Below, piece by piece: positions 3,277 through 42,135 of a stretch of DNA of 64,000 bases; positions within the stretch are counted from its first letter, which is position 1, and every line of letters starts with the position of its first letter. Under the pieces are notes generated by a model. The model saw nothing but the letters and a program-made list of their open reading frames with translations. It had not been told where the DNA came from and ran no database searches. The position numbers were made by a program, and so were the translations under genes. Origin of the DNA: Chloroflexia bacterium (GTDB lineage: Bacteria > Chloroflexota > Chloroflexia > DTKN01); assembly GCA_036172265.1 (NCBI GenBank), contig JASFBA010000021.1, positions 4,158 through 68,157 of the forward strand, given 5' to 3'.

Positions 3277-5598
3277 ATGACCGAACACACCGAAACCGCC
3301 CTGGATGCCTACTGCGTTCGCTGTAAAGAGAAACGGCCGTTGAAAGACCCGGAGCCAGTCTTCACCGCCGTGGGACGTCCCGCCACGCGCGGCACCTGCC
3401 CGGTCTGCGGGACCACCCTTCTCCGCTTAGGTGCTACACCCGCCCACGAGGGCATGGACCCGCCCCCACCCCCTAAACCGGAGGGCCGGCTGGTCATCGT
3501 AGAATCCCCCGCCAAAGCCCGTACCGTCGGCCGGTTCCTGGGCAAGGGCTACACCGTCCGCGCTTCGGTCGGCCATGTTCGCGACCTCCTGCGCTCTTCT
3601 ATGTCGGTGGATGTGGAGAACGATTTCAAACCCACCTATCGGGTGCCCAGAGAGAAAAAGCAGGTGGTGAAGGAACTGGCGGAGGAGGTCAAGAAGGCCG
3701 CCGAGGTCTACCTGGCCACCGACCCGGACCGGGAGGGAGAGGCCATTGCCTGGCATCTGACGGAGACTATCGGCATCCGCCCTCAGCAACTGCGCCGGGT
3801 CGTCTTCCACGAGATCACCCAGCCGGCCATAGAGGAGGCATTCGCCCACCCGCGCGGGATTGATATGAACCTGGTCAACGCTCAGCAGGCCCGGCGTATC
3901 CTGGACCGGCTGGTCGGTTACAGCCTGAGCCCGCTATTGTGGCGCAAAGTCCGCAGCCGCCTCAGCGCCGGACGAGTCCAGTCCGTCGCCGTCCGCATGG
4001 CCGTGGAGCGGGAGCGGGAAATCCAGAACTTCGTCCCCGAGGAGTACTGGTCCATCCAGGCCGAACTGGCCAAACGGGACGCAAGTTCAACCGTGCGCCG
4101 CACCTTCCTGGCCAAACTCCACCGCATTCGCGGGGAGGAGGTCAACCTGAAGGACGAACCAGCCACCCGCGCGGTGGTGGAGGAACTGGAACGGGCTGTC
4201 TACGTTGTCGCTTCAGTCAAAGAGGGCCAGCGCCGCCGCCAACCCTCGCCGCCCTTCACCACCAGCACGATGCAACAGGAAGCGTCCCGGCGGCTGGGCT
4301 TCACCGCCACCCGTACGATGCGCATCGCCCAGCAACTCTACGAGGGGCTTGACCTGGACGGGAGCGGGCCGGTGGGCCTTATCACGTATATGCGCACCGA
4401 CTCCACCAACGTCGCCGAACAGGCCCAGGCGGAAGCGCGCCAGTACATCGCCCACCGGTACGGGGAGAACTTCCTTCCCCCTCAGCCCCCCGTCTACAAG
4501 ACGAAGACGAAGGGCGCGCAGGAGGCCCACGAGGCCATCCGGCCTACGTCCGTCTTCCGGGAGCCGGAGGCCATCCGGGAGCGACTGACCCGGGACCAGT
4601 ACCGGCTCTACCAGTTGATCTGGCAGCGGTTCGTCGCCAGCCAGATGCCGCCCGCGCTCTACGACACAATGACGGTGGAGATAGAGGCCGGAGAGGAAGT
4701 GCCTGACACCTCTCGGCGCCCCTATCTCTTCCGCGCCACCGGCTCCACGCTCCGTTTCCCTGGCTTCCTGATCGTCTACGAGGAAGCAAAAGACGAGGAC
4801 GTGCAGGAAGAGGAGCCCGTCCAGCAAATCCCGCCGCTGACGGTCGGAGAGGTGCTGGACCTGGTCCGGCTGATCCCCGAACAGCACTTCACTCAGCCGC
4901 CGCCCCGCTACACCGAGGCAACGCTGGTCCGGGCGCTGGAGGAGTACGGCATCGGCCGTCCCTCCACCTACGCGCCCATCCTGGCGACCATCCAGCAGCG
5001 CGGGTATGTCCGCCGGGAGGGGAAGCGACTGGTCCCCACGGAGACCGGCTTCCTGGTCAACGACCTGCTGGTGGAGCACTTCCCGGAGGTCATGGACTAC
5101 GGTTTCACCGCGCAGATGGAGGAGCAGTTGGACGAGATTGCCGCCGGTCGGCAGGAGTGGGTGCCGGTGGTGCGAGAATTTTACCGTCCCTTTGCCCTTC
5201 AGGTCGCCCGGGCCGACCAGCAGATAGAAAAAGTGGAACTGGAATCACCCCAGGTGGGCCGGAATTGCCCCGAGTGCGGCGCACCGCTCATCATCCGCTG
5301 GGGCCGGTACGGGAAATTCATCGGCTGCTCCCGCTTTCCGGACTGCCGCTACACTGAACCCTGGCAGGAGAAGGTGGGAGCGACCTGTCCCCAGTGTGGC
5401 GGCGACCTGGTGGAGAAGCGGACCCGCAAAGGGCGGACGGGCTACGGCTGTATCAACTACCCGACCTGCAACTTCTGGGTCTGGCAGCGACCGCTGCCTG
5501 TTCCCTGCCCGGCCTGCGGGGGCCTGATGACGGAGGCCCGCAAGGGCGTCGCCCGCTGCACCGCCTGCGGGGAGGAGATACCGCTGGCGGAAGAGTGA
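3277..5598 (+). CDS. topA: DNA topoisomerase I with N-terminal zinc ribbon and C-terminal zinc fingers
   Basis: 773 aa with a TOPRIM (LVIVESPAKARTVGRFLG) and the Topo IA core (YITYMRTDSTNV, active-site Tyr region). There are several C-terminal CxxC...CxxC zinc ribbons. AAGGAGG RBS. Confidence 0.9.
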   Translation: MTEHTETALDAYCVRCKEKRPLKDPEPVFTAVGRPATRGTCPVCGTTLLRLGATPAHEGMDPPPPPKPEGRLVIVESPAKARTVGRFLGKGYTVRASVGHVRDLLRSSMSVDVENDFKPTYRVPREKKQVVKELAEEVKKAAEVYLATDPDREGEAIAWHLTETIGIRPQQLRRVVFHEITQPAIEEAFAHPRGIDMNLVNAQQARRILDRLVGYSLSPLLWRKVRSRLSAGRVQSVAVRMAVEREREIQNFVPEEYWSIQAELAKRDASSTVRRTFLAKLHRIRGEEVNLKDEPATRAVVEELERAVYVVASVKEGQRRRQPSPPFTTSTMQQEASRRLGFTATRTMRIAQQLYEGLDLDGSGPVGLITYMRTDSTNVAEQAQAEARQYIAHRYGENFLPPQPPVYKTKTKGAQEAHEAIRPTSVFREPEAIRERLTRDQYRLYQLIWQRFVASQMPPALYDTMTVEIEAGEEVPDTSRRPYLFRATGSTLRFPGFLIVYEEAKDEDVQEEEPVQQIPPLTVGEVLDLVRLIPEQHFTQPPPRYTEATLVRALEEYGIGRPSTYAPILATIQQRGYVRREGKRLVPTETGFLVNDLLVEHFPEVMDYGFTAQMEEQLDEIAAGRQEWVPVVREFYRPFALQVARADQQIEKVELESPQVGRNCPECGAPLIIRWGRYGKFIGCSRFPDCRYTEPWQEKVGATCPQCGGDLVEKRTRKGRTGYGCINYPTCNFWVWQRPLPVPCPACGGLMTEARKGVARCTACGEEIPLAEE

Positions 5599-26503: not shown

Positions 26504-26511
26504 AATAATAA

Positions 26512-26582
26512 GGCGACGTAGACAAGTGGCAAGGCAGGGGTCTGCAAAACCCCGATCAGCGGTTCGAATCCGCTCGTCGCCT
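26512..26582 (+). tRNA. tRNA-Cys (anticodon GCA)
   Basis: Manual fold. Acceptor GGCGACG/CGTCGCC, anticodon stem GGGGT/ACCCC with loop CUGCAAA (GCA), T-arm AGCGG-TTCGAAT-CCGCT, discriminator U. 71 nt, no encoded CCA, short D-arm as in other tRNA-Cys. Confidence 0.85.
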
Positions 26583-26595
26583 TCAGTATTATACC

Positions 26596-26654: not shown

Positions 26655-29600
26655 CTATGGGAAGGAGTAGCCCTTGAGCGTCAGCGGCAGGTAGATGACA
26701 TAGGGCCAGATGACCCGGATGGCCTTCCGGACCGTCTGATGGCTGCAGGCGTTCTCCGCCGTCAGGGTCACGGCGTAGGTGTTGGAGATGGTGTAGGTAT
26801 GGGTCACCACCCGGCCGGCCGCCGTCCCCCTGTCGCCAAAGGCCCAGGTGTAGGTGATCGGCTCGCTGCCCTGCTCTACGCTTCCGGTGAAGGTGATGAC
26901 CTGCCACGGATGGGGCTGAGGCGGAGCGTAGGTAAAGTCCGTCCCGCTAATGGGGATGCAGGCAGTGGTTACCACCAGCGTCACCTCCACCCAGACGTGC
27001 GGCTCATCCGGGTCGTTGCTGGTCACATCCAGGGTGGTGGTGTAGGTGCCCGTGACCAGCCCGGTGGCGTCAAAGGCGACCTGCACCGTCTCCTGTCCAG
27101 AGGGCGGGATGACTCCACCGGTGGGCGTCTCGTCCAACCAGGTGACGACGGGCACCTCGGCCAGGCTCCAGTCCAGGATTTCCTCGCCCACGTTGCGGAT
27201 GGTGAGGGTGCGGGTCGTCGTCCCGCCGGGGTTGAGGACGGCGCTCAGCGCCAGGGGAGATACTTCGATGTCGGGGACACCCAGGACCTCGACAGAAGTG
27301 GTGCGGGTGAAGGGGGCGTGGACGCCGTCATCAATCCAGACCAGGTTGGTGAGAACGGTGCCGGTCGGCACATCCAGGACACGGGCTTGGAAGGGCAGCG
27401 AAACCGAGGGCGAAACGCCCCCGCTCCAGAGGAGGAGGCCGTCCGTATAGACCATGCCGGGCGGTAGGGTCTCGGTGAGCACGGTCGTCTGGGTCGGCAC
27501 GACGTCGGTGATGGTGACCCAGGCCTCGATCTCGCCCACGTTGATGAGGCGGATGGTGAAGGTGAGCACCTCGCCGGGATGCACGTAGAAGCGGTCGGCC
27601 TCCTTGAGGGAAGGGGTCAGGTCTGGCTCGGGCGCCGGGCGGGTGGTGAAGGACCAGGTGTACTCGGCGCACATCGGCCAGCCCTCGGCGCTCTGGATGC
27701 CGGTGGTCAGGTGGGCAATGTAGGTAGTCCCATAGGCCAGCGGTGCCGAAGGCGTGAAGATGGCCGTATAGGTGGCCGGGTCGTAGCCTACACTGCCGGA
27801 GACCAGGCCCATCGGTCCCTCCAGGAAGAAGGTGCTCGTGTTCACCGTGGAGGGGTTGAGGGCGATGTTGAAGGTGGCGGTGACCAGGGTGGAGATGGGC
27901 ACGCCTGTCGCACCGTCGGCCGGCCCGACGCTCCGAACGGTGGGGGCGAGGGCGATGTCGGCATCGTAGCGCGGCTCAAGTTTGAAGTTGTTGTAGGTGT
28001 AGAAGAGGACGCCGCGGACGGTGTAGAGGACGTCGCCCAGTCGCGGGACGTAGGTGTACTGCCCCATATCGTCCACGCGGGCCATGACGCCGCTCGCGTC
28101 GGCGATGCCCCACTCGCCATAGCCCAGGTCCGGGTTCACCACCGTGGCGCAGCGCACCTCCACCAGGACGCTCTCCAGCGGCTCGGCCTGCTGGGGGTTG
28201 CCGGTGGTGATGGCGGCGGTGGTGGTGAGCACGGGGAACGGCGGCCACCAGTCCATCAGCACCCGGAAGTAGTCAATGTTGCCCAGTTCGGTCATGCCGT
28301 AGTATTCGGTTACCGTCCCGCCCAGGACCAGGACCTGGCTTTCCGTGACCACCCGGCCGGGGTCGTAGACGAAGAGGCCCTGCCAGGGGCCGTACTCGCC
28401 GAGGCTGCCGAGGACATAGCGCACCGGGTTGCCGGCCGAGGGATAGGCCTGGGAATCGGCTACCACGATGCCTATCACGTAGACGTGCTCCCCTACGTGG
28501 CGCGAAGGCCAGGTGCCGGTCATCACCGAGGGGGCCTGCACTTCCCAGATCGGCATGGGGAGGTCGGTATCCCAGTAGGCATAGTTGTTGTTCGGGTCGG
28601 TGTCGTTGCTGGAGGTGATCCAGACCTGGTTGCGCACCGTCCAGGTCATGGGGTCGGTGCTCACCTGGCCGTAGACGATGAAGGAAGCGGTGGCACTGAC
28701 CGTACCCAGTTCCCAGACCAGGGTGTTGGAAATGATCGTCGGCGTGACCGGAGCCGTGTCGCTTATATAGAGGACGGCAGCCGGGAGGACGTCGGTGATG
28801 ACCACGTTCAGGGCCGGATCGCCCATTTGCTCGTAGGTCAGGGTGTAGGAGATTGGTCCGCCCGGCGTGCTGAAGACCGTTCCGGTTTTGGCGATGCCGA
28901 TTTCGGAACCGACTACCTGGCTGACCAGAATGTCCTGGTTGTTATTCGGGACGGTGTCCCCGGTGCAGGTCACCCCGACGGTGTTGGTCAGGAGGGTGCC
29001 AAAGGGCAGGTCGCCGACCTGGGCCTGGAGCCAGATGGTGTTGCTCATCAGGCCGGAAAGGCTGCCGCCGTCAAAGACCACCGTGGGGGTAACCTGGGTC
29101 AGGGTGATGGGGAGATAGGAAGTGAAGGTGACGAAGGCAACCCCACCGGGCAGGGTATCGGTGATGACGATGTTATAGCCGGGGCCCATGGCCTGCATCG
29201 TGTAGGAGAGGGTGTAGGTGATGAGGGAGTTGGGGGATACAAAGGCCGGCCCGGACTTGTCCACGGCGATGTCCACGGAGCAGTTCGAGCGACCTAGCGT
29301 TTCAGGGAAGTCCATCCAGGTCGTGCCGCCGCCGGAGGTGGCCCAGTCGTAGCCGTCGTGGGGGCCTTCCCCGTCGCAGACGCGCTGGAAGGTATTGTCC
29401 TCATATTCGTTGTACCATCCGATCTGGTCCACCCGGGTACGGTCGGGGAGGAAGAGGTAGCCCACGTCGAGGGAGGAAAAGTCCATGACGATGGTCCAGT
29501 CCACCGTCTCCTCCAGGACGACCCAGCCGCCGGGCGGGACAATGGGGTGGGTAACGATGACGGCTACGGCGTCGCCGTCGGAGAGGTACCACCCATTCAT

Positions 29601-30806
29601 GTCGATCGGGGAGTCGCCGGGGTTGTAAATTTCGACCTTGTCGTTGACGGCCGGCGGGTAGTTATCGAACTCGTTGAGGATGAGGGAGGTGCCCAACGAC
29701 ACCGGAGCGGCATCGTTGGCTGCATCGCGGGTGGATGTATTGTCCAGGTTCCAGTCGCGGGCGTGGTCGTCGGTGTCCCAGCCGTCGGGAGTACGGGCGC
29801 AGGAATAGCCAGTGGGCGGGATGGGCGCGCCGCCACGGATGCCGTAGCCGACCTGATCTACCGGCGCAGGGGCCCATGGGGCGTTCAGGGAGATCACATC
29901 GCCGTCGTTGCTCAAGTAATCGGCGCCGGTGTTGAAGGAATAGTACCCGCCCGGGGGCAGCACGGTCCCGAACGGAACGGTATAGTTCAGCGGTCCTCCT
30001 GCGCCGCCATAGTCCGACACCACGGTCCAGCCGGAGATGTCCACCGCCTGCACCGTGGTATTGTGGAGTTCGATCCATTCCGTTCCCTTGGCCACGAACT
30101 CGTTGATAACCACGGGAGTTATCACGTGAGCCCGGATGCGGGCCCGGCCGGCATCGGCCAGGAAAAGTACCGCTTGGCCGGGGAAGGTTGTGGAGAAGGC
30201 CAGGTTATCGGTGTTGACCGAGCGGCCGCCCTCGTTGCCCTGGGGGCCGATGGCATCCCAGGTGCCGCTGCGGACGGCCTTGTAATAGTGGGTGCCGGCC
30301 GTGGGGATGGTGGTGGCGTAGCCGTAGAGGCCGCCGCCGAGGGGAGTCATCACCGTGCTGGGGTCGGAGGGGTTCCAGCCCTGCCAGTCGCCCACGGCGG
30401 TCCAGGTGGTTACGCCATCTTGGGCGTTGACGATGAGGGTGGAGGGAGACCAGCCGTCGTTGTAGGTGTTGGTGTCAAAGGTGAACTTGACCGGCTGGTT
30501 CGCATCCGCGGTCAGAATCCAGGCGTTGGAAGGCGGGTGGGGGTCGGTCCAGTTGCCGTCGTCCACCTTGAACTCGTAGCGGCCGCCGGTGGTGATGGTG
30601 ATGATGACGGTGTAGATGCCGTCGTTGGCCACGTCGTCGCCGTGGGTGCCGTCGTCGTACATAAGGTCGGTACCCCAGCCGTTGAAATCGCCGCGGACGT
30701 ACCAGGGCGGGCCGGCGGCCAGGGCGCGGGGAGCGGGGCCGGCCGGAAGGAAGAGGCCAGCCAGGAGCGAAAGGAGCAAAACCGAGGGAAACCATAGGCG
30801 TCTCAT
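26655..30806 (-). CDS. Giant secreted multidomain protein (CBM-like N-domain, two lamin-tail-domain repeats, DUF11 repeats, Ig-like domains, C-terminal PKD domain, terminal YVIYLPLTLKG tail)
   Basis: 1383 aa. AGGAGG RBS, signal peptide MRRLWFPSVLLLSLLAGLFLPAGPAPRALA. LTD motifs (VVINEF...EWIELHN, LILNEFDNY...VEIYNP). PKD: ITYTWAFGDRGTAAGRVVTHTYT. Confidence 0.85.
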   Translation of the reverse strand: MRRLWFPSVLLLSLLAGLFLPAGPAPRALAAGPPWYVRGDFNGWGTDLMYDDGTHGDDVANDGIYTVIITITTGGRYEFKVDDGNWTDPHPPSNAWILTADANQPVKFTFDTNTYNDGWSPSTLIVNAQDGVTTWTAVGDWQGWNPSDPSTVMTPLGGGLYGYATTIPTAGTHYYKAVRSGTWDAIGPQGNEGGRSVNTDNLAFSTTFPGQAVLFLADAGRARIRAHVITPVVINEFVAKGTEWIELHNTTVQAVDISGWTVVSDYGGAGGPLNYTVPFGTVLPPGGYYSFNTGADYLSNDGDVISLNAPWAPAPVDQVGYGIRGGAPIPPTGYSCARTPDGWDTDDHARDWNLDNTSTRDAANDAAPVSLGTSLILNEFDNYPPAVNDKVEIYNPGDSPIDMNGWYLSDGDAVAVIVTHPIVPPGGWVVLEETVDWTIVMDFSSLDVGYLFLPDRTRVDQIGWYNEYEDNTFQRVCDGEGPHDGYDWATSGGGTTWMDFPETLGRSNCSVDIAVDKSGPAFVSPNSLITYTLSYTMQAMGPGYNIVITDTLPGGVAFVTFTSYLPITLTQVTPTVVFDGGSLSGLMSNTIWLQAQVGDLPFGTLLTNTVGVTCTGDTVPNNNQDILVSQVVGSEIGIAKTGTVFSTPGGPISYTLTYEQMGDPALNVVITDVLPAAVLYISDTAPVTPTIISNTLVWELGTVSATASFIVYGQVSTDPMTWTVRNQVWITSSNDTDPNNNYAYWDTDLPMPIWEVQAPSVMTGTWPSRHVGEHVYVIGIVVADSQAYPSAGNPVRYVLGSLGEYGPWQGLFVYDPGRVVTESQVLVLGGTVTEYYGMTELGNIDYFRVLMDWWPPFPVLTTTAAITTGNPQQAEPLESVLVEVRCATVVNPDLGYGEWGIADASGVMARVDDMGQYTYVPRLGDVLYTVRGVLFYTYNNFKLEPRYDADIALAPTVRSVGPADGATGVPISTLVTATFNIALNPSTVNTSTFFLEGPMGLVSGSVGYDPATYTAIFTPSAPLAYGTTYIAHLTTGIQSAEGWPMCAEYTWSFTTRPAPEPDLTPSLKEADRFYVHPGEVLTFTIRLINVGEIEAWVTITDVVPTQTTVLTETLPPGMVYTDGLLLWSGGVSPSVSLPFQARVLDVPTGTVLTNLVWIDDGVHAPFTRTTSVEVLGVPDIEVSPLALSAVLNPGGTTTRTLTIRNVGEEILDWSLAEVPVVTWLDETPTGGVIPPSGQETVQVAFDATGLVTGTYTTTLDVTSNDPDEPHVWVEVTLVVTTACIPISGTDFTYAPPQPHPWQVITFTGSVEQGSEPITYTWAFGDRGTAAGRVVTHTYTISNTYAVTLTAENACSHQTVRKAIRVIWPYVIYLPLTLKGYSFP

Positions 30807-31036
30807 GGGATTTCCTCCTTTTCTTTCAGAAACGGCAGGCCGGGGAGGAGGACAATTACAAGCAGTTCACCTCCTTTCAGCGACTCATGCGCCACTTAAA
30901 GGGCTTGACAGCCGTTTTTGGGGAAACCTGTTTTTATTATACAATTGCTGGATAAACTTGTCAAGCGCAATCGCCGTTTGCGCCCCGCTCCTCTTTCTGT
31001 TATAATCATACCCAGAATACCGAAAGCGAGGAGAAA

Positions 31037-34960: not shown

Positions 34961-37900
34961 GTGTACGTCCGCCAACTCCACCTTCAGGGCTTCAAGACCT
35001 TTGCTACCCGGACATCCTTTTCCTTCGGCCGAGGCATCACCGCCATTGTGGGCCCGAACGGTTCCGGGAAGAGCAACCTGGCCGATGCTCTGCGCTGGGT
35101 GCTTGGCGAACAGAGTTACTCCACCTTGCGCAGCCGGCGTACCGAAGACGTGATCTTCAGCGGAAGTCCCTCCCGCCCTCCGGCGGGAATGGCCGAGGTG
35201 ACCCTCGTCCTCGATAACGAAGACGGCGCCCTCCCGATCGACTTCCCCGAAGTCGAGATCACTCGACGAGCCTATCGTTCCGGGGCAAACGAATATTTCC
35301 TCAACCGCCGCCGGGTGCGCCTGCAGGATATCGAGGAGGTGCTCGGCGGGTTGAGCGCTTCCTACGTCGTAATTCACCAGGGACTGGTGGACGAGGCCCT
35401 TTCCCTCCGCCCGAGGGAACGCCGATTGCTCCTGGAGGAAGCGGCCGAGGTGCGGCGTTACCACGAACGCCGCCAGAAAGCGCTGGAGCGCCTCCGCGAA
35501 ACCGCGGCCAACATGACCCGCCTTTCAGACCTGCGTAACGAACTCCTCCCCCGGCTACGGGCGCTGGAACGACAATCGCAGCAAGTCCGGCAACGGGCCG
35601 GACTTGAGGCTTCCCTGCAAGAGGCGCTGCGCACTTGGTATCGCCTTCTCTGGGAGGAAGTTTCCTCCGCCCTGCGCCAGGCCGAACGGGAGGAGGAAGA
35701 AGCCCGAAACCGCCTGGAACTCCTCCGCGCTTCGGCGGAAGAAGTCATCCGACAGATCGCCTCCCTGCGGCAGGCTGTCCAGGAAAGCCGGCAAAAGGAG
35801 GAGGAACGTCGCCGGAAAGAGGGGGAAATACGTCGGCGGATCGGGACATTGCGCGAGCGACTGGCCCGCGCCCTCGGGGAAAGCCAGGCCTTGGAGCGTC
35901 ACCGGGAGGAGTTGCGGGCAGAAGTCGCCCGTTACCGCCGGGAACTGGCCTTGCAAGAGGAGCGCCGGGCGTTCCTGGCCCAGGCCGGAAAGGCCCTGAA
36001 GGAACGGGTGCTGCAGGCCCAGGCCGGCCTCCAGAGACAACAGGAGCATTACCGGCAGGCCGAAACCGACCTCCGCTCCGTCCAACAGAACTTGCAAGCG
36101 CTTCAGGAACAGGAGCGCCGCCTGGAGCAACTTCGGGCCCGCGAAGAGGTGTTGGCACGGGAAGAGGCGGAGCGACGCCGCCTCCTGGAGGAATTGGCCG
36201 AGCAGAAGCGCCGATTGGAAGAGGAGAGGGCGCGCGCGATGGAGGAACAGGCCCGACGGGAGGAGGTTTGGACCTCCCTGTGTGCTCGCCGGAAGGCGCT
36301 ACAGGCTGAGGTGGAAAGCCGGCAGGAGGACCTTCGGAAACAGGATGAGGCGCAGGAATCGGCCCGCCTGCGTCTGGCCGACCTCCGTGCCCGACTTGAG
36401 ACCTTGGAGGAGGACGATGCCACCTCGTTCCTGGAAGAATGGGCCCGTCGGCAGGGCCGGCCGGCCTTCTCCACCCTCTTGGACCGCCTGACCGTCCCCC
36501 GGGGGCTGCGGAAAGCCCTTGCCGCCGCCCTCGGCGTCCACCTCCTACCCTTGCTTTTCTCCACTTGGGAGGAAGCCCGGGAGGCGCTTCGCGCCCTGGA
36601 AGGGGCCAAGACTGGCTCGGCCACCTTCCTTCCCCGAGATGAACTTCGCCCACCCCCTTCGGCCCTCTCCGGGTCCCCTGCCCTGGGCAGCGAGGGCCTG
36701 CTGCTCGATCACCTGACTTGCCCCCGGGAGGATCGGCCGGCCCTGGCCTGCCTTCTGGGCCGCGTCCTCCTGGCGCGTGACCTGGAGGCGGCCCGCCGTA
36801 TCGCCCGCGGCATCCCGGCCGGATGGCTGGTGGTAACCCGAGAGGGGGAAGCCGTCACCGCCGAGGGTGTCCTTTCCGGCGGAAAGCTGTGGGAAGATGC
36901 CCTGGAGCGCCGAGAAGAGCGCCGCCGGCTGGCCCGCGCCACGGCCGAGGTGGAAGTGCAGGTTGTGGAGGGAGAACGCAAACGGACCGAAACCCGAGAG
37001 CGGCTGGCCGCCGCTCAGGCGGCCCTGACCGCCCTGGCGACGGAGATGGAGGAGAAGCGCCTCGCCCGAGAGGAAGGCGCTCGACATCTCCTCGACCTGG
37101 ATCTGAGTCTGGAGCGTCTGGAGGAAGAAATCGGCCGGCAGAGCCTCCGTCTGGAAGAACTGTCCGGGGAAAGGGGCCGCCTTGAAGAGGAAATGCAGGC
37201 ATCCGCTCCAGGAGAGGCAAACCGCCGTCTGGTCCTTCAGGAGGAACTGGAGCAAGCCCGGGTGAGGGAAGAGCAGGCCCGGGAGGAATTCCTCCGGGCC
37301 CGCCGGTCCCTGGAGGAAGCCCGCCTGGTCTGGGCCGTGGCCCGGAAAGAGGAGGAGAACCAGCGCGCCCTGGAGGAAATGGTGCAGCAGGGCGTTCGAG
37401 GGCTTCAGAGGCAGGTGGAAAAGGGGGAGAAACGTCTGGAGGAGATAGGGCGTCGGTTGGAAGCGCAAGCGGCCCAGATCGCTTCCTGGGAGGCCGAACT
37501 GGCCGGCCTGGAGCAAGAGATAGCCGCGCTCGAGGAAGTTTCTGCTCCTCCTTCCCTACGGGAGTTGGAAGAGAAAGAAGCGGAGGAGGCCCGCTTACGG
37601 GAGGAGATTCTGGCCTGGGAAACGGCCGCCAGCCGGGCTGCCCTAGCCGTTCAGCGCTGGCGGGATGCCCGGCGGGAACTCCTCCAGCGTGCCCTTGCAG
37701 AGATCGGCCCCGAGGCCAGTGCCTACGGGCCGGCCGGCGAGGCCCTCCTGAACGCCCTCCTATCCTCTCCCCCGGAGTGGACCCGCCTGCCCCTCGACCC
37801 GAACCTGACCAGGGAGGAAGTGGAGCGACGGGTGGCCCACCTGCGCGAGGAGGTCCGTCGCATCGGCCCGGTCAACCCGCTGGCGGAAGAGGAATATCGG

Positions 37901-38527: not shown

Positions 38528-38617
38528 CCCTCTGGGCCGGCCCTGGAGCAGAAAAAACACCGTACATCTTCCTTTGCCTATCTCGCCCGATGACCCTCCT
38601 ACCCCGAAGGCAGGAGA

Positions 38618-38885
38618 CCGGTGTCCCTCCCCCTGGATGGGGGAGGTCAGGAGGGGGTGAAGGGCCGCCGGCGTCGCTCTTCTCCATCAGGGGAGGGGGA
38701 CAAGGCGGGAACCCGGTGTCCCTCCCCCTGGATGGGGGAGGTCAGGGGGGTGAAGGGCCGCCGACGTCGCTCTTCTCCATCAGAGGAGGGGGACAAGGCG
38801 GGAACCCGGTGTCCCTCCCCCTGGATGGGGGAGGGCAGGGGGGAAGGGCCGCCGGCGTCGCTCTTCTCCATCAGGGGAGGGGGAC
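38618..38885. repeat. Tandem repeat, 2.9 copies of a 93-95 bp unit with internal C-rich/G-rich inverted repeats
   Basis: Copies start at 38618, 38713 and 38806, with >95% identity and a 2-nt indel between copies. Each unit contains CCCTCCCCC-tggat-GGGGGAGG. GGGAGGGGGA of one unit pairs with TCCCTCCCC of the next. Periods of 95 and 93 are not multiples of 3, so it is non-coding. Confidence 0.85.
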
Positions 38886-39164
38886 TTGATACCTATAGGG
38901 CGAAGTTACCCCGCCCCTACAAATTTGCCCATCCAGAAATACGCATCCCCCTGGCCCCCTGTCAGCATATCGGGCTTGACAAGTATAGTATAATGGAAGT
39001 GTAAACCTGGTCCGACTCCTTGCTGCTGAAATCCCGATCTCAACACTGTTCAAACAAGCGGGCGAAAGCCGGTCGAGGAGCGGGCTTGCCCCTGCGGGCC
39101 GAACTCGTGACCCGGCCCGTAGAGCCGTATCGAGACCGAGTGGGCGATTCTGTGGAGGTGCCCC

Positions 39165-39614
39165 ATGAAGCGCGCACGAACGTTGGGGATCGGAGTTTTT
39201 CTCATCCTGGGGCTGATCGGTCCGATGTCCCCTGTCCAAGGGGCCGAGATCCGATCCCCCCGACCGGCCGGACTGCTCCAGCCGCCAACCGCCGGCTTCC
39301 TTTCCAACAGTCCCATCTGCTTGGGCCAAACGGCCGTCTTCACCGACACGAGCAGCGGGGAGATCTTCTACCACGAATGGGATTTCGGCGATGGGGCCGT
39401 GGGCACAGGCTCCACGCCACGACACGGCTATTTCTGGCCGGGCACCTACACGGTAACCCTCACCGTGGGAGGCCCGGAGGGTAGCGATTCCTATGGCGAC
39501 ACCTTCGAGGTCCTGCCGGCCACCGAGGCCTTCTTCTGGGTCGAACCGTCGGAAGCCATCGTCGGCCGACCAGTGCACTTCCTGAACGTTTCCCAGGGGG
39601 CCACCGGCTACTAG
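39165..39614 (+). CDS. N-terminal fragment (signal peptide + PKD domain) of a secreted PKD/Big/metzincin-like protein, ended by an in-frame TAG
   Basis: Signal peptide MKRARTLGIGVFLILGLIGPMSPVQGA. PKD motif FYHEWDFGDGAVGTGSTPRHGYFWPGTYTVTLTV. A second PKD is cut at ...SQGATGY*. Confidence 0.6.
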   Translation: MKRARTLGIGVFLILGLIGPMSPVQGAEIRSPRPAGLLQPPTAGFLSNSPICLGQTAVFTDTSSGEIFYHEWDFGDGAVGTGSTPRHGYFWPGTYTVTLTVGGPEGSDSYGDTFEVLPATEAFFWVEPSEAIVGRPVHFLNVSQGATGY

Positions 39615-39620
39615 TGGGAC

Positions 39621-41321
39621 ATGGGCGACGGGACGCTGAGCACAGAGATCAGCCCGACCCACACCTACACCGAGGCCGGCGACTATGTCGTGCAACTGAC
39701 CGCCCTAGCCGCTGCCCCCTGCCAGAACTCGGTCTATACGACCACGCTCCACGTCCGCTACCGTACCTTCCTGAGCGTGGCCTACCGGGCGGCGGATCCG
39801 TCCGTCCCCTACCTGGAGGTGGAGACGCTGGCCGTGTCCTCCACCGGTCCGCACCAGGCCGACGGGCAGGATGTGGCCACCATCGTGGTCACGGCCACAG
39901 CAGCCGACGGAAGCCCGGTGCCCGGCCGGAATGTGGCGGTGGAACTGTATGCCGGGGAGGACCTTGGGGGCGCCTACCCGGCCACCGATAACGGCGACGG
40001 CACCTATACCGCCCAGGTCACCTCCACCGTGGCGGCCGACTTCCTGGTCTTGGCCGTCGAGTACGGCTCCCACCAGGTGGCCACCACCACCCTCTCCTTC
40101 CTGCCGGGGACACCCCAGACCATCGCCTGGGTCGAGGTGGTCCGGCCGGCCGACACAATCACTAAGGATACCGCCCTCCTGACGGCCGTGGTGGAGGATG
40201 CCTGGGGCAACCGGGTGCCGACCACGACTGCTCCCATTAGTTTCACCACCGACTTCGGTTCCCTGGTCTCATGGGAGGAGGAAGGCTATTACCACGCCCG
40301 CGTCCAAGCCACCGACTATGGGGTGGCCCATGTCCAGGCCGCCGGTTCGGTCGTTGGGCCCTCCCCGGCAATGACCGAGGCGGCTTTCTTGCCCCTTTAC
40401 CTCGAGTTCCGCACCATGCCGGGCGTGGGCGGGGAACTGGCCGTGGACGTGATCGTCTGGGCCCCCAAGGCCGACCTGGGGATGTACAACCTGGAACTGA
40501 CCTTTGATCCCCACGTCTTACACTTCAAAGGCATGCTGGACGGCGACCCGACCGATCCGTTCCCTGCCCCCTCTTACTCTATCTCTGGCACAAACACGAT
40601 CGTCTTCCACCAAATAAACTCTGGCGGAGAGCCCACCCCAGAGCGCATCCACCTTGCCACCAGCTTCTTCGACGTCTTCGTCGAGGCAGACCTGACCCCC
40701 CTTTCCCTACACCTGCTGAAAGACGATGTCCGCAGCCTGATGGATGTCTACGGCAACCCTCTGCTGCCCCAGGAACTCTACGACCTCCTGCAGCCCCGTT
40801 TGACCTGGTGGCTGCCCTTTTTCCTCAAATGGCCCAAACCGGTCTGCCTCAAGGTCTGGCTGGCGCCGGGAGCCACGCCGAACCTGGCCGGCCACACTTT
40901 GACGTTGAACGATATCTATTGGCGGAACGTGCCCCGATGCTGCCCCTGGTTCCTTTTCTTCCCGGTTACCAACACCATCAGACCCGTGGACTGGAATAAG
41001 ATCAACCAGGGTCCTCCGCAGTTGGATAGATCGGAGCGGGATGCCCTACGTGCCCGCTACAATCGTGCCCGCTGCATCAACGTCATTTATGCCCCGGACA
41101 ACTCTTTAGGAGGCACCGGCGTCACGATCCCAGGCGACGGCATCATCATAGACGGCGATGCGCTCGCCAACACCCTGGCCCACGAGGTCGGGCACTACTA
41201 CGGGCTGCGGGACCGATATGCAGCCGGGGCTGCAATTAACCTGATGTACGGATACGGCAACCCGGGCAAGTGGATCTTGACGCCGGCCCAGTGCGCCGTC
41301 ATCACCGCGAACGACCCATAG
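39621..41321 (+). CDS. C-terminal continuation of the same gene: PKD remainder, Big-like Ig domains, cohesin-like domain, and a C-terminal metzincin-like HEVGHYYGLRD zinc-peptidase domain
   Basis: Same frame as 39165..39614. The PKD motif continues across the TAG (ATGY*WDMGDGTLS...HTYTEAGDYVVQLTA). HExxHxxGxxD plus a Met-turn-like LMYGY near the C-terminus. Confidence 0.6.
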   Translation: MGDGTLSTEISPTHTYTEAGDYVVQLTALAAAPCQNSVYTTTLHVRYRTFLSVAYRAADPSVPYLEVETLAVSSTGPHQADGQDVATIVVTATAADGSPVPGRNVAVELYAGEDLGGAYPATDNGDGTYTAQVTSTVAADFLVLAVEYGSHQVATTTLSFLPGTPQTIAWVEVVRPADTITKDTALLTAVVEDAWGNRVPTTTAPISFTTDFGSLVSWEEEGYYHARVQATDYGVAHVQAAGSVVGPSPAMTEAAFLPLYLEFRTMPGVGGELAVDVIVWAPKADLGMYNLELTFDPHVLHFKGMLDGDPTDPFPAPSYSISGTNTIVFHQINSGGEPTPERIHLATSFFDVFVEADLTPLSLHLLKDDVRSLMDVYGNPLLPQELYDLLQPRLTWWLPFFLKWPKPVCLKVWLAPGATPNLAGHTLTLNDIYWRNVPRCCPWFLFFPVTNTIRPVDWNKINQGPPQLDRSERDALRARYNRARCINVIYAPDNSLGGTGVTIPGDGIIIDGDALANTLAHEVGHYYGLRDRYAAGAAINLMYGYGNPGKWILTPAQCAVITANDP

Positions 41322-41688
41322 GTTAGGCGTCGCTGGCAAGCCGGCGAAGCGGTTCGCCCTATCCGAAAGTGCCGGGCGGAGGAAACCTCGCCTCGTTCCC
41401 TCTACCGGGGACGGGGAGAAGGAGACCGGACACCGGCAAAATTACCTTATGTTGCACTTGATAAGCGTTCGTCCTTCCACCAAGAGGCCATTTTATCGGC
41501 GATTCCCCCACCGGGGGGCCGTGAGTCAGGACAGCGATGGCGTTTTTGCCCCACCAGGCGAAATTTGCCAGAATCGGCGAGTAAGTAGGCGAAGGCACTG
41601 CCCTCGCCTACCCGGCGGCCGGTAGACGCGGCCGTCCATCCTCATTATAATTGCCTACGGCTGCGGGCAGGACACTGCCTCGGCCCGG

Positions 41689-42015
41689 GTGGAGGTATAT
41701 CCGCCGGCGGTATGTGAACCGGTGGACATCCTTACTTACACGGCCCAGATTTCCGGCTGTATCGCCACCTTTGAGGCGGTGCTGGCCGGCACCGCGCCGT
41801 TCGAGTACCTCTGGAATTTCGGCACCTTCGGCGCCTACACCACAGTGAACCCTGTGGTGAACTTCCAGGCAACGGGCACTTACACCGGGACGCTTTGGGC
41901 ATGGAACTGCACCGGGCAGTACTCGGACACGATGGCACTGGAGGTGCGCGTGGAGTGCGCCCCACCGGTGCACCACTACATCATCTACCTGCCGCTGGTG
42001 CTGCGGAACGGCTAG
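41689..42015 (+). CDS. Small PKD-module protein, paralog of the C-terminus of the 1383-aa protein (ends HHYIIYLPLVLRNG)
   Basis: FEYLWNFGTFGAYTTVNPVVNFQATGTYTGTLWAWNCTG PKD-like. GTG start as per ORF track. The upstream in-frame stretch (TRPSILIIIAYGCGQDTASA) has no canonical start codon. Confidence 0.45.
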   Translation: MEVYPPAVCEPVDILTYTAQISGCIATFEAVLAGTAPFEYLWNFGTFGAYTTVNPVVNFQATGTYTGTLWAWNCTGQYSDTMALEVRVECAPPVHHYIIYLPLVLRNG

Positions 42016-42135
42016 CCAGTCTCTGACAACCGGCTCGTAGCACAGGCTTTGGGGACTGGACAAAATAACCGGATAAAACAGAACGCTCCTGCCGATCCCG
42101 CCTGGACATGGAACGTCCGGCGAGACCTGGAAGGC

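Follow-up and report, generated by a model that had tools for sequence, protein, structure and literature searches.

The interrupted gene

A 64,000-nucleotide stretch of the genome of an uncultivated Chloroflexia bacterium (GTDB lineage DTKN01; GenBank assembly GCA_036172265.1, contig JASFBA010000021.1, positions 4,158 to 68,157 of the forward strand), called the window here and numbered from its first letter, carries a gene for a predicted secreted, multi-domain, metzincin-like protease that is now interrupted by a premature amber codon. The whole ancestral gene occupies 39165-41321 on the plus strand, the strand of all the features of the gene described below. From the ATG at 39165 to the TAG at 41319-41321 the sequence is one reading frame of 718 codons, and the only stop within it is the TAG at 39612-39614, codon 150. 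The list of open reading frames (ORFs) shows the gene as two ORFs in the same frame, 39165-39614 (149 amino acids) and 39621-41321 (566 amino acids). An earlier note, made by a model from the letters alone, had taken these to be two halves of one gene with a single TAG between them, and the frame and the translation agree. The note had also placed the TAG within a PKD motif, which is confirmed by alignment: the peptide at the stop, ATGY*WDMGDG (the asterisk being the stop), aligns with HEWDFGDG in the first PKD domain of the same protein, and the stop falls directly before the WD(F/M)GDG core of the second.

The 5' end of the gene has a Shine-Dalgarno sequence, GGAGGTG (39154-39160), which lies 4 nt 5' of the ATG and is kept in the sister species. 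The first codons encode a predicted Sec signal peptide, MKRARTLGIGVFLILGLIGPMSPVQG|AE (39165-39242), read from the sequence and conserved in orthologues. When the stop is masked, Pfam finds two PKD stretches above the gathering score (PKD_4 at 85.9 bits, E = 2e-24; PKD at 71.2 bits, E = 7e-20). The first is PKD domain 1 (39282-39512; PKD_4, residues 40-116). PKD domain 2 lies at approximately 39525-39761, as judged from the second PKD stretch, a PKD_3 match at residues 143-180 and the alignment to domain 1, and the TAG cuts it after about a third of its length. The first ATG after the stop (39621-39623), which gene callers chose as the start of the 566-residue ORF, encodes the internal Met of WD(M)GDG; it is not preceded by a proper Shine-Dalgarno sequence, and orthologues have Leu or Phe there. 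The TAG at 41319-41321 is the normal terminator, and all copies of the gene end in TAG at the same C-terminus, ...ANDP.

The stop codon in a second assembly and in orthologues

The same TAG is found in a second assembly. L002, a 2,661-bp contig from the Logan assembly of run SRR24425660, spans window positions 38910-41570 at 99.9% identity, and carries both the TAG and the same two called ORFs. It differs from the window at two of its 2,661 bases, at 41019 and 41443. The earlier note had listed a sequencing or assembly error among three explanations of the stop; the organism would then truly have CAG, and the T would be a mistake of sequencing, assembly or consensus calling. No error is commoner than a single-base difference, and the window seems to come from a metagenome-assembled genome (MAG), since all of its closest relatives are MAGs. 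But the products of the window belong, by an exact look-up, to an NCBI contig of 76,728 bp, and the stop was thus recovered from two separate assemblies that differ in their letters, which makes a mistake in assembly or consensus calling very unlikely. Those neighbouring genes that were scanned with Pfam are unbroken and have their full domains, and an analogous TAG allele, described below, was recovered from two different runs of a sister species. We give an artefact of any kind hardly any weight.

A search of 5.8 billion proteins returned three clusters that are similar over the full length of the protein. One (P0001) is the downstream ORF itself from another assembly, one (P0002) is a protein of 719 amino acids with 79% identity that covers 100% of the joined query, and one (P0003) has 724 amino acids and 51% identity. 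Two further proteins of 719 amino acids, P0256 and P0257, are also uninterrupted. The intact orthologues are of three types (79%, about 80% and 51% identity), and each type is a single gene of 719-724 residues; the comparison with orthologues that the earlier note had proposed thus found uninterrupted genes, and no case of two separate ones. At the site of the stop the orthologues read GYQWD, with the Gln codon being CAA in L001 and CAG in L003. Since intact orthologues have Gln at this site, one C-to-T transition of an ancestral CAG accounts for the TAG. An exact search of JGI metagenomes for the TAG or the CAG allele (GGCTACYAGTGGGACATGGGCGAC) found neither, and no intact allele of the window's own species was found.

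The orthologues also bear on the idea that the split is functional, with a small secreted PKD protein encoded by the first ORF and a cytoplasmic protein of 566 amino acids produced by termination and re-initiation at the ATG at 39621. The gap between the stop and this ATG is only 6 nt, a geometry that permits re-initiation in bacteria, and gene callers predicted both ORFs in two assemblies. However, the downstream product would start in the middle of a PKD beta-sandwich, and it would be without the signal peptide that precedes these typically extracellular domains (PKD, Big_1, cohesin and metzincin) in all orthologues. There is no Shine-Dalgarno sequence ahead of 39621, and the Met itself is specific to this lineage. 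None of the orthologues is organised as two genes, and the only other copy in two pieces, that of the sister species, has its break at another codon, while its intact alleles are single genes. A working two-gene arrangement therefore seems highly improbable.

Age of the lesion

The window copy was compared with the copies of the sister species to date the stop. By the Nei-Gojobori method dN/dS is 0.24-0.27 overall, 0.27-0.37 in codons 1-150, and 0.22-0.24 in both codons 151-323 and codons 324 to the end. In a Tajima relative-rate comparison with L003 as the outgroup, the window branch and the other branch have 30 and 28 amino-acid changes when L001 is the partner, and 28 and 25 when L086 is. 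Downstream of the stop the corresponding counts are 25 against 23 (L001) and 23 against 22 (L086). For almost the whole period since the species parted (dS about 0.5) the gene was under purifying selection, and no decay has followed. Because selection acted nearly throughout and the window branch has no excess of changes, the stop is young.

A second amber allele in a sister species

The 90% identity cluster of P0002 contains three intact proteins of 719 amino acids and fragments of 321 and 395 amino acids. In the sister species called B2, which has 87% nucleotide identity to the window across housekeeping genes, Trp322 (TGG) has become TAG in two runs, L084 (SRR18653126; 6222-6224) and L085 (SRR27170999). 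Two other B2 copies are intact, L086 (ERZ23499125; 10001-12160) and L087 (SRR30574052; 2906-5065), and the four copies are 99.0-99.9% identical. The TAG322 allele occurs on two backgrounds which differ by a block of five linked single-nucleotide polymorphisms in codons 206-217, and this suggests either recombination within the population or a mixture of strains in the assemblies.

The gene was thus broken by a stop on two separate occasions, once in each of two sister species, and each time a G:C-to-A:T transition created the TAG. If a few per cent of the genome's genes are pseudogenes, a rate which is assumed here and was not measured, the chance of a second independent hit in the gene already chosen is also only a few per cent. 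Under that assumption the low chance of a double hit suggests, but does not prove, that in some settings the gene is probably dispensable or under selection for its loss, and the family seems to be loss-prone.

The locus resembles the nonsense pseudogenes and segregating loss-of-function alleles known from bacteria in several ways. One premature stop interrupts a gene that is intact in all other respects, and the sense codon of the orthologues is one mutation away. The stop is one of the genome's normal terminators, no further decay has set in yet, and intact and truncated alleles are found in near-identical strains of the sister species. It is unlike them in that one gene was struck by separate mutations in two sister species, and the double hit hints at gene-specific dispensability or at selection for loss. 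There is an outside chance that the two amber alleles are not neutral. They could reflect recurrent selection, in natural Chloroflexota populations, for the loss of a secreted "public-good" or surface-exposed protease, as in cheating or in escape from phages or predators, or, more radically, there could be appreciable readthrough of UAG, which would make the TAG a reversible throttle.

TAG as a terminator in the window

Stop codon use was counted in a set of 44 window genes, chosen heuristically by their GC content by codon position (the genome is 65% GC). TAG ends 19 of these genes, TGA 14 and TAA 11. Glycyl-tRNA synthetase (GlyRS), XerC/D, VWA and FHA proteins, patatin and others end in TAG at C-termini where the domains are complete; in GlyRS, for example, the anticodon-binding domain reaches residue 436 of 439, ahead of the TAG. 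Three adjacent pairs of same-frame coding ORFs were joined across their stop and inspected, and they revealed no other coding sequence that runs through one. Same-frame neighbours across a TAG are ordinary adjacent genes: a VWA protein whose TAG is directly followed by the ATG of a zinc-ribbon/FHA protein, XerC/D followed by GlyRS, and a P-type ATPase followed by a membrane protein. The search for in-frame TAG codons in other genes, which the earlier note had also proposed, found none in the window besides this one, for a tally of one in about 44 genes. Chains of same-frame ORFs separated by TAG opposite SMC (35555-37555) and other long genes were considered and rejected as high-GC shadow frames; they are not interrupted genes. 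The only tRNA in the window is a tRNA-Cys, with no suppressor-type tRNA and no tRNA-CUA, and no further RNA family was found there at Rfam gathering scores.

The third explanation in the earlier note, amber readthrough or recoding, fares poorly against these results. Since TAG serves as a regular stop here and Gln codons occupy the site in the orthologues, the candidacy of the gene for recoding does not hold. A genome-wide reassignment of TAG is excluded for the 64-kb stretch, where TAG is the commonest terminator. Programmed readthrough was rejected because the stop is confined to the window's lineage, and the stop of the sister species is at another codon and polymorphic. A pyrrolysine gene is disfavoured as well. 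The locus does share with the pyrrolysine genes (mtmB, mtbB and mttB) and with TAG-reassigned codes an in-frame TAG in an otherwise intact gene, and pyrrolysine (Pyl) systems occur in some Chloroflexi (PMC5424206). Unlike in those cases, the TAG is not conserved in orthologues, which have CAA or CAG, the protein does not belong to a methylamine methyltransferase family, and TAG is the leading terminator in the window.

A weaker form of the same idea is that a suppressor tRNA (e.g. a tRNA-Gln with a CUA anticodon), a Pyl system or leaky termination keeps the gene functional, with the TAG serving as a throttle on expression. The ancestral residue is Gln, and near-cognate or supE-type tRNAs insert Gln at UAG more often than any other amino acid. 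The 566 downstream codons have not decayed, a second in-frame TAG occurs in the same gene of the sister species, and Pyl systems are present in some members of the phylum. However, efficient suppression would be costly where TAG is the most frequent terminator and ends conserved housekeeping genes in the normal way. The TAGs hit separate codons, 150 in one shallow lineage and 322 in another, and the intact sister alleles are 99.4-99.9% identical. The window has no tRNA-CUA, no other in-frame TAG was found in about 44 genes, and decay would not be expected in any case between TAG-bearing copies that differ at only 2 of 2,661 bases. Suppression that keeps the gene working is therefore judged to be very unlikely.

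A probable recent nonsense allele

The best explanation of the locus is a genuine recent nonsense allele, Gln150 CAG to TAG, in a normal single-copy gene. It would be a young pseudogene or a segregating loss-of-function variant, null or nearly so, and we put the probability of this at roughly 0.8. Among the three alternatives of the earlier note, the evidence thus favours recent pseudogenisation.

Because TAG is an ordinary stop here, and the commonest one, ribosomes that start at the strong Shine-Dalgarno/ATG at 39165 should terminate at 39612-39614. Translation would begin at the conserved GGAGGTG/ATG (39154-39167) and end at the UAG, and the product would be a secreted stump of 149 residues with the signal peptide, PKD domain 1 and a third of PKD domain 2. 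The remaining 566 codons, which include the protease domain, would be left without a signal peptide and without a proper ribosome-binding site. Re-initiation at the ATG at 39621, or readthrough by near-cognate tRNAs, may at best yield traces of the downstream part, which would stay inside the cell. We infer that translation ends at this site, that the protease part is no longer secreted and that function is lost; the protease is most likely not delivered outside the cell.

Several points weigh against this explanation. L002 might stem from the same sample as the window or from a related one, which would make it an independent assembly and not an independent population, and an intact CAG allele could be present alongside the TAG allele in the source sample. 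The inspection for suppressor tRNAs and pyl genes covered 64 kb only, in a phylum of which some members have Pyl systems. Both knockouts are amber codons, although this outcome is forced for CAG and has a 1-in-2 chance for TGG. Finally, an undecayed downstream part is equally expected if the gene continues to function through readthrough, so its preservation speaks to the age of the lesion and not to its consequence.

Domain architecture and family

Downstream of the PKD domains the frame encodes two Ig-like domains of the Big_1/Invasin_D3 type (39852-40364, limits approximate). Each of the two Pfam families matches two stretches of the stop-masked protein, the best at residues 230-314 (Invasin_D3 E = 8.7e-14; Big_1 E = 6.9e-10). 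A cohesin-fold domain follows at 40395-40715, based on an AlphaFold model and Foldseek. The last domain, at 40836-41318, is a metzincin-type catalytic domain, based on a profile compared with PDB sequences, on Foldseek and on Peptidase_M10 matches in relatives. It contains the zinc-binding motif HEVGHYYGLRD (41181-41213, residues 673-683), which has the form HExxHxxGxxD with Asp at the third-ligand position, and the putative Met-turn NLMYG (41238-41252), whose residues N692, L693, M694, Y695 and G696 are invariant in orthologues. Pfam itself gives weak metzincin matches at residues 646-697 (Peptidase_M66 and DUF4953), and the window protein does not reach the cut-off of any protease model in Pfam or NCBIfam.

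An exhaustive profile search with the C-terminal 320 positions was run against 1.84 billion representatives. It found 132 proteins at E<=1e-3, 29 at E<=1e-10 and 4 at E<=1e-30. The better relatives combine Big_1/Invasin_D3, a near-threshold Cohesin match and metzincin models, with Peptidase_M10 above the cut-off in three of them. The Pfam Cohesin family (PF00963) scores 20-23 bits in the relatives against a cut-off of 24.1, and has no match in the window protein. A 17-sequence profile was compared with PDB sequences. Around the HExxH helix it matches adamalysins (E = 3e-5), ADAMTS-5, fragilysin, karilysin and serralysin, and it also has marginal matches to cellulosomal cohesins.

The structure of the module was predicted with AlphaFold. 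A first model from three sequences was too poor (predicted local distance difference test, pLDDT, 52.6) and was not used; the 17-sequence alignment gave a model with a pLDDT of 81.9, which is 80-93 across the cohesin-fold region and about 60 over the putative Met-turn. In Foldseek the top 36 matches of module residues ~12-118 are all cohesin modules, with 2jh2 at E = 7e-7 and a probability of 1.0, and the remainder of the module aligns to profragilysin-3 (E = 4.6e-4). The cohesin-like and metzincin-like domains that the earlier note had read from the letters are thus borne out by structure and profile comparison. Its further label, snapalysin-type, holds for the HExxHxxGxxD motif with its Asp ligand but not for membership of that family, since NF033628 scores only 13.1 bits against a cut-off of 300.

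The H, E, H, G and D of HEVGHYYGLRD are invariant among orthologues, and the three orthologue types nearest to the window protein all keep the third-ligand Asp. These close orthologues and the window protein have HExxHxxGLxD, whereas the motif of the relatives is TLAHE(I/V)GHY(F/W)GLxH ... NLMY. Distant relatives that retain the motif Gly have His at or near the third-ligand position, and NLM(Y/N) recurs in them. In the window's clade the third zinc ligand has switched from His to Asp.

Three groups of known proteins can be compared with this architecture. The metzincins (adamalysin/reprolysin M12B, fragilysin M10C, matrixin/karilysin M10A and serralysin M10B) share with it HExxHxxGxx(H/D), a putative Met-turn (NLMY), the profile matches and the resemblance of the model to profragilysin-3. 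Unlike them, the window protein has Asp instead of His as the third ligand, and a cohesin-fold domain, not a classical pro-peptide, precedes the putative catalytic domain. Snapalysin (MEROPS M7), the small neutral protease of Streptomyces, shares HExxHxxGxxD with Asp as the third ligand. In the window protein the Asp is followed by xY (GLRDRY), much as in the GLPD-x-Y of snapalysin. The likeness ends with the motif, as the weak NF033628 match covers residues 671-702 only. Snapalysin is a small single-domain enzyme, whereas the window protein is a multi-domain protein of 718 amino acids whose wider family mostly has His at the third-ligand position. With the cohesins of cellulosomal scaffoldins and the non-cellulosomal cohesins (Clostridium perfringens 2jh2 and Archaeoglobus 2xdh) the domain shares its fold (Foldseek E = 7e-7 to 1e-5, probability 1.0), and two relatives of the family carry a dockerin. 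It is unlike them in that the sequence similarity is marginal, with sub-cut-off Pfam matches in relatives only, and in that the window protein has no dockerin.

The two dockerin-bearing relatives, P0121 and P0122, are distant relatives of the C-terminal module and combine dockerin, cohesin-fold and metzincin domains in one protein. The presence of a dockerin and a cohesin fold in the same protein would make self-association, or a cellulosome-like assembly of proteases, a possibility.

The domain combination as a whole is uncommon, as the earlier note had remarked: the three clusters described above are the only ones similar over the full length among the 5.8 billion proteins. Among the GTDB species representatives a scan for the cohesin-metzincin module turned up no relative, and a scan of JGI metagenome contigs found none either; the lineage of the window is thus poorly sampled. 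By GlyRS, the nearest species representative is Chloroflexia MAG H111_92, with 91% amino-acid and 76% nucleotide identity.

Upstream region and gene neighbourhood

The earlier note had described a strong TTGACA/TATAAT region upstream of the gene, and as stated this is incorrect. TTGACA (38976-38981) and TATAAT (38989-38994) are separated by 7 nt, not by 16-18. A canonical sigma-70 promoter was rejected on account of that spacer, and a sigma-70 scan calls none at the block. The block as a whole, CTTGACA-N7-TATAAT-(G/A)GAAGTGTAAA (38975-39005), is shared by the A and B lineages, whose leaders otherwise diverge. From this cross-lineage comparison it is a probable promoter or operator region, and it may be an unusual one. 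The block lies right against the stop codon of SMC in the sister species. The leader of about 170 nt that the earlier note had reported agrees with the distance from the block to the ATG, which is about 165-170 nt. No Rfam family was found in the leader at gathering or permissive thresholds, and a consensus fold of four leader sequences gave weak covariation and no convincing conserved structure.

The spacer between SMC and the gene is 637 bp in the window and about 200 bp in the sister species. In the window it holds a 93-bp tandem repeat (38607-38885; 3.0 copies, 93% identity) which is absent from the sister species. Each unit contains a hairpin, CCCTCCCCC-TGGAT-GGGGGAGG, of which there are no further copies in the window.

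The gene sits in a conserved housekeeping context, with trigger factor, ClpP, ClpX, a response regulator and SMC upstream, and patatin, a CofD-like gene and GlmS downstream. The spacer between the gene and patatin (41322-42076) is about 750 bp long; no similarity to it was found in L001, where the spacer is about 240 bp. A small ORF at 41626-42015 on the plus strand has a partial, sub-threshold PKD match (PKD_4 profile positions 31-84, 24.4 bits against a cut-off of 27), and there is a promoter-like site at 41623-41651. This stretch may be the remnant of a lost PKD-bearing gene.

In B2 the gene directly downstream (L086 12355-13992; L087 5260-6117) encodes a putative secreted subtilisin-like (S8) protease with a C-terminal PKD domain, and this gene is absent from both the window and L001. 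The secreted-protease content of the locus therefore varies between close species. L001, of sister lineage B1, has two small minus-strand genes after patatin (4202-5134; 67 amino acids, and 134 amino acids with HHH_5/DUF4332). The window lacks them, and the CofD-like gene directly follows patatin.

Elsewhere in the window, a minus-strand gene at 26655-30866 encodes a protein of 1,403 amino acids with Lamin-tail, DUF11, Big_5, HYDIN-like Ig and PKD domains, which is probably a surface or secreted protein. It adjoins the tRNA-Cys (26511-26584) and is conserved in the sister species at 88% nucleotide identity.

Significance

What looked like a candidate for amber recoding fails as one, and showing this spares further effort in that direction. 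The gene belongs to a very rare and uncharacterised family of secreted PKD-Ig-cohesin-metzincin proteins, and about 30 further distant relatives share its cohesin-metzincin module, some of them with dockerins. Together with the second amber allele in the sister species, where intact and truncated alleles coexist in near-identical strains, the locus would be a small natural example of the recurrent loss of an extracellular protease.

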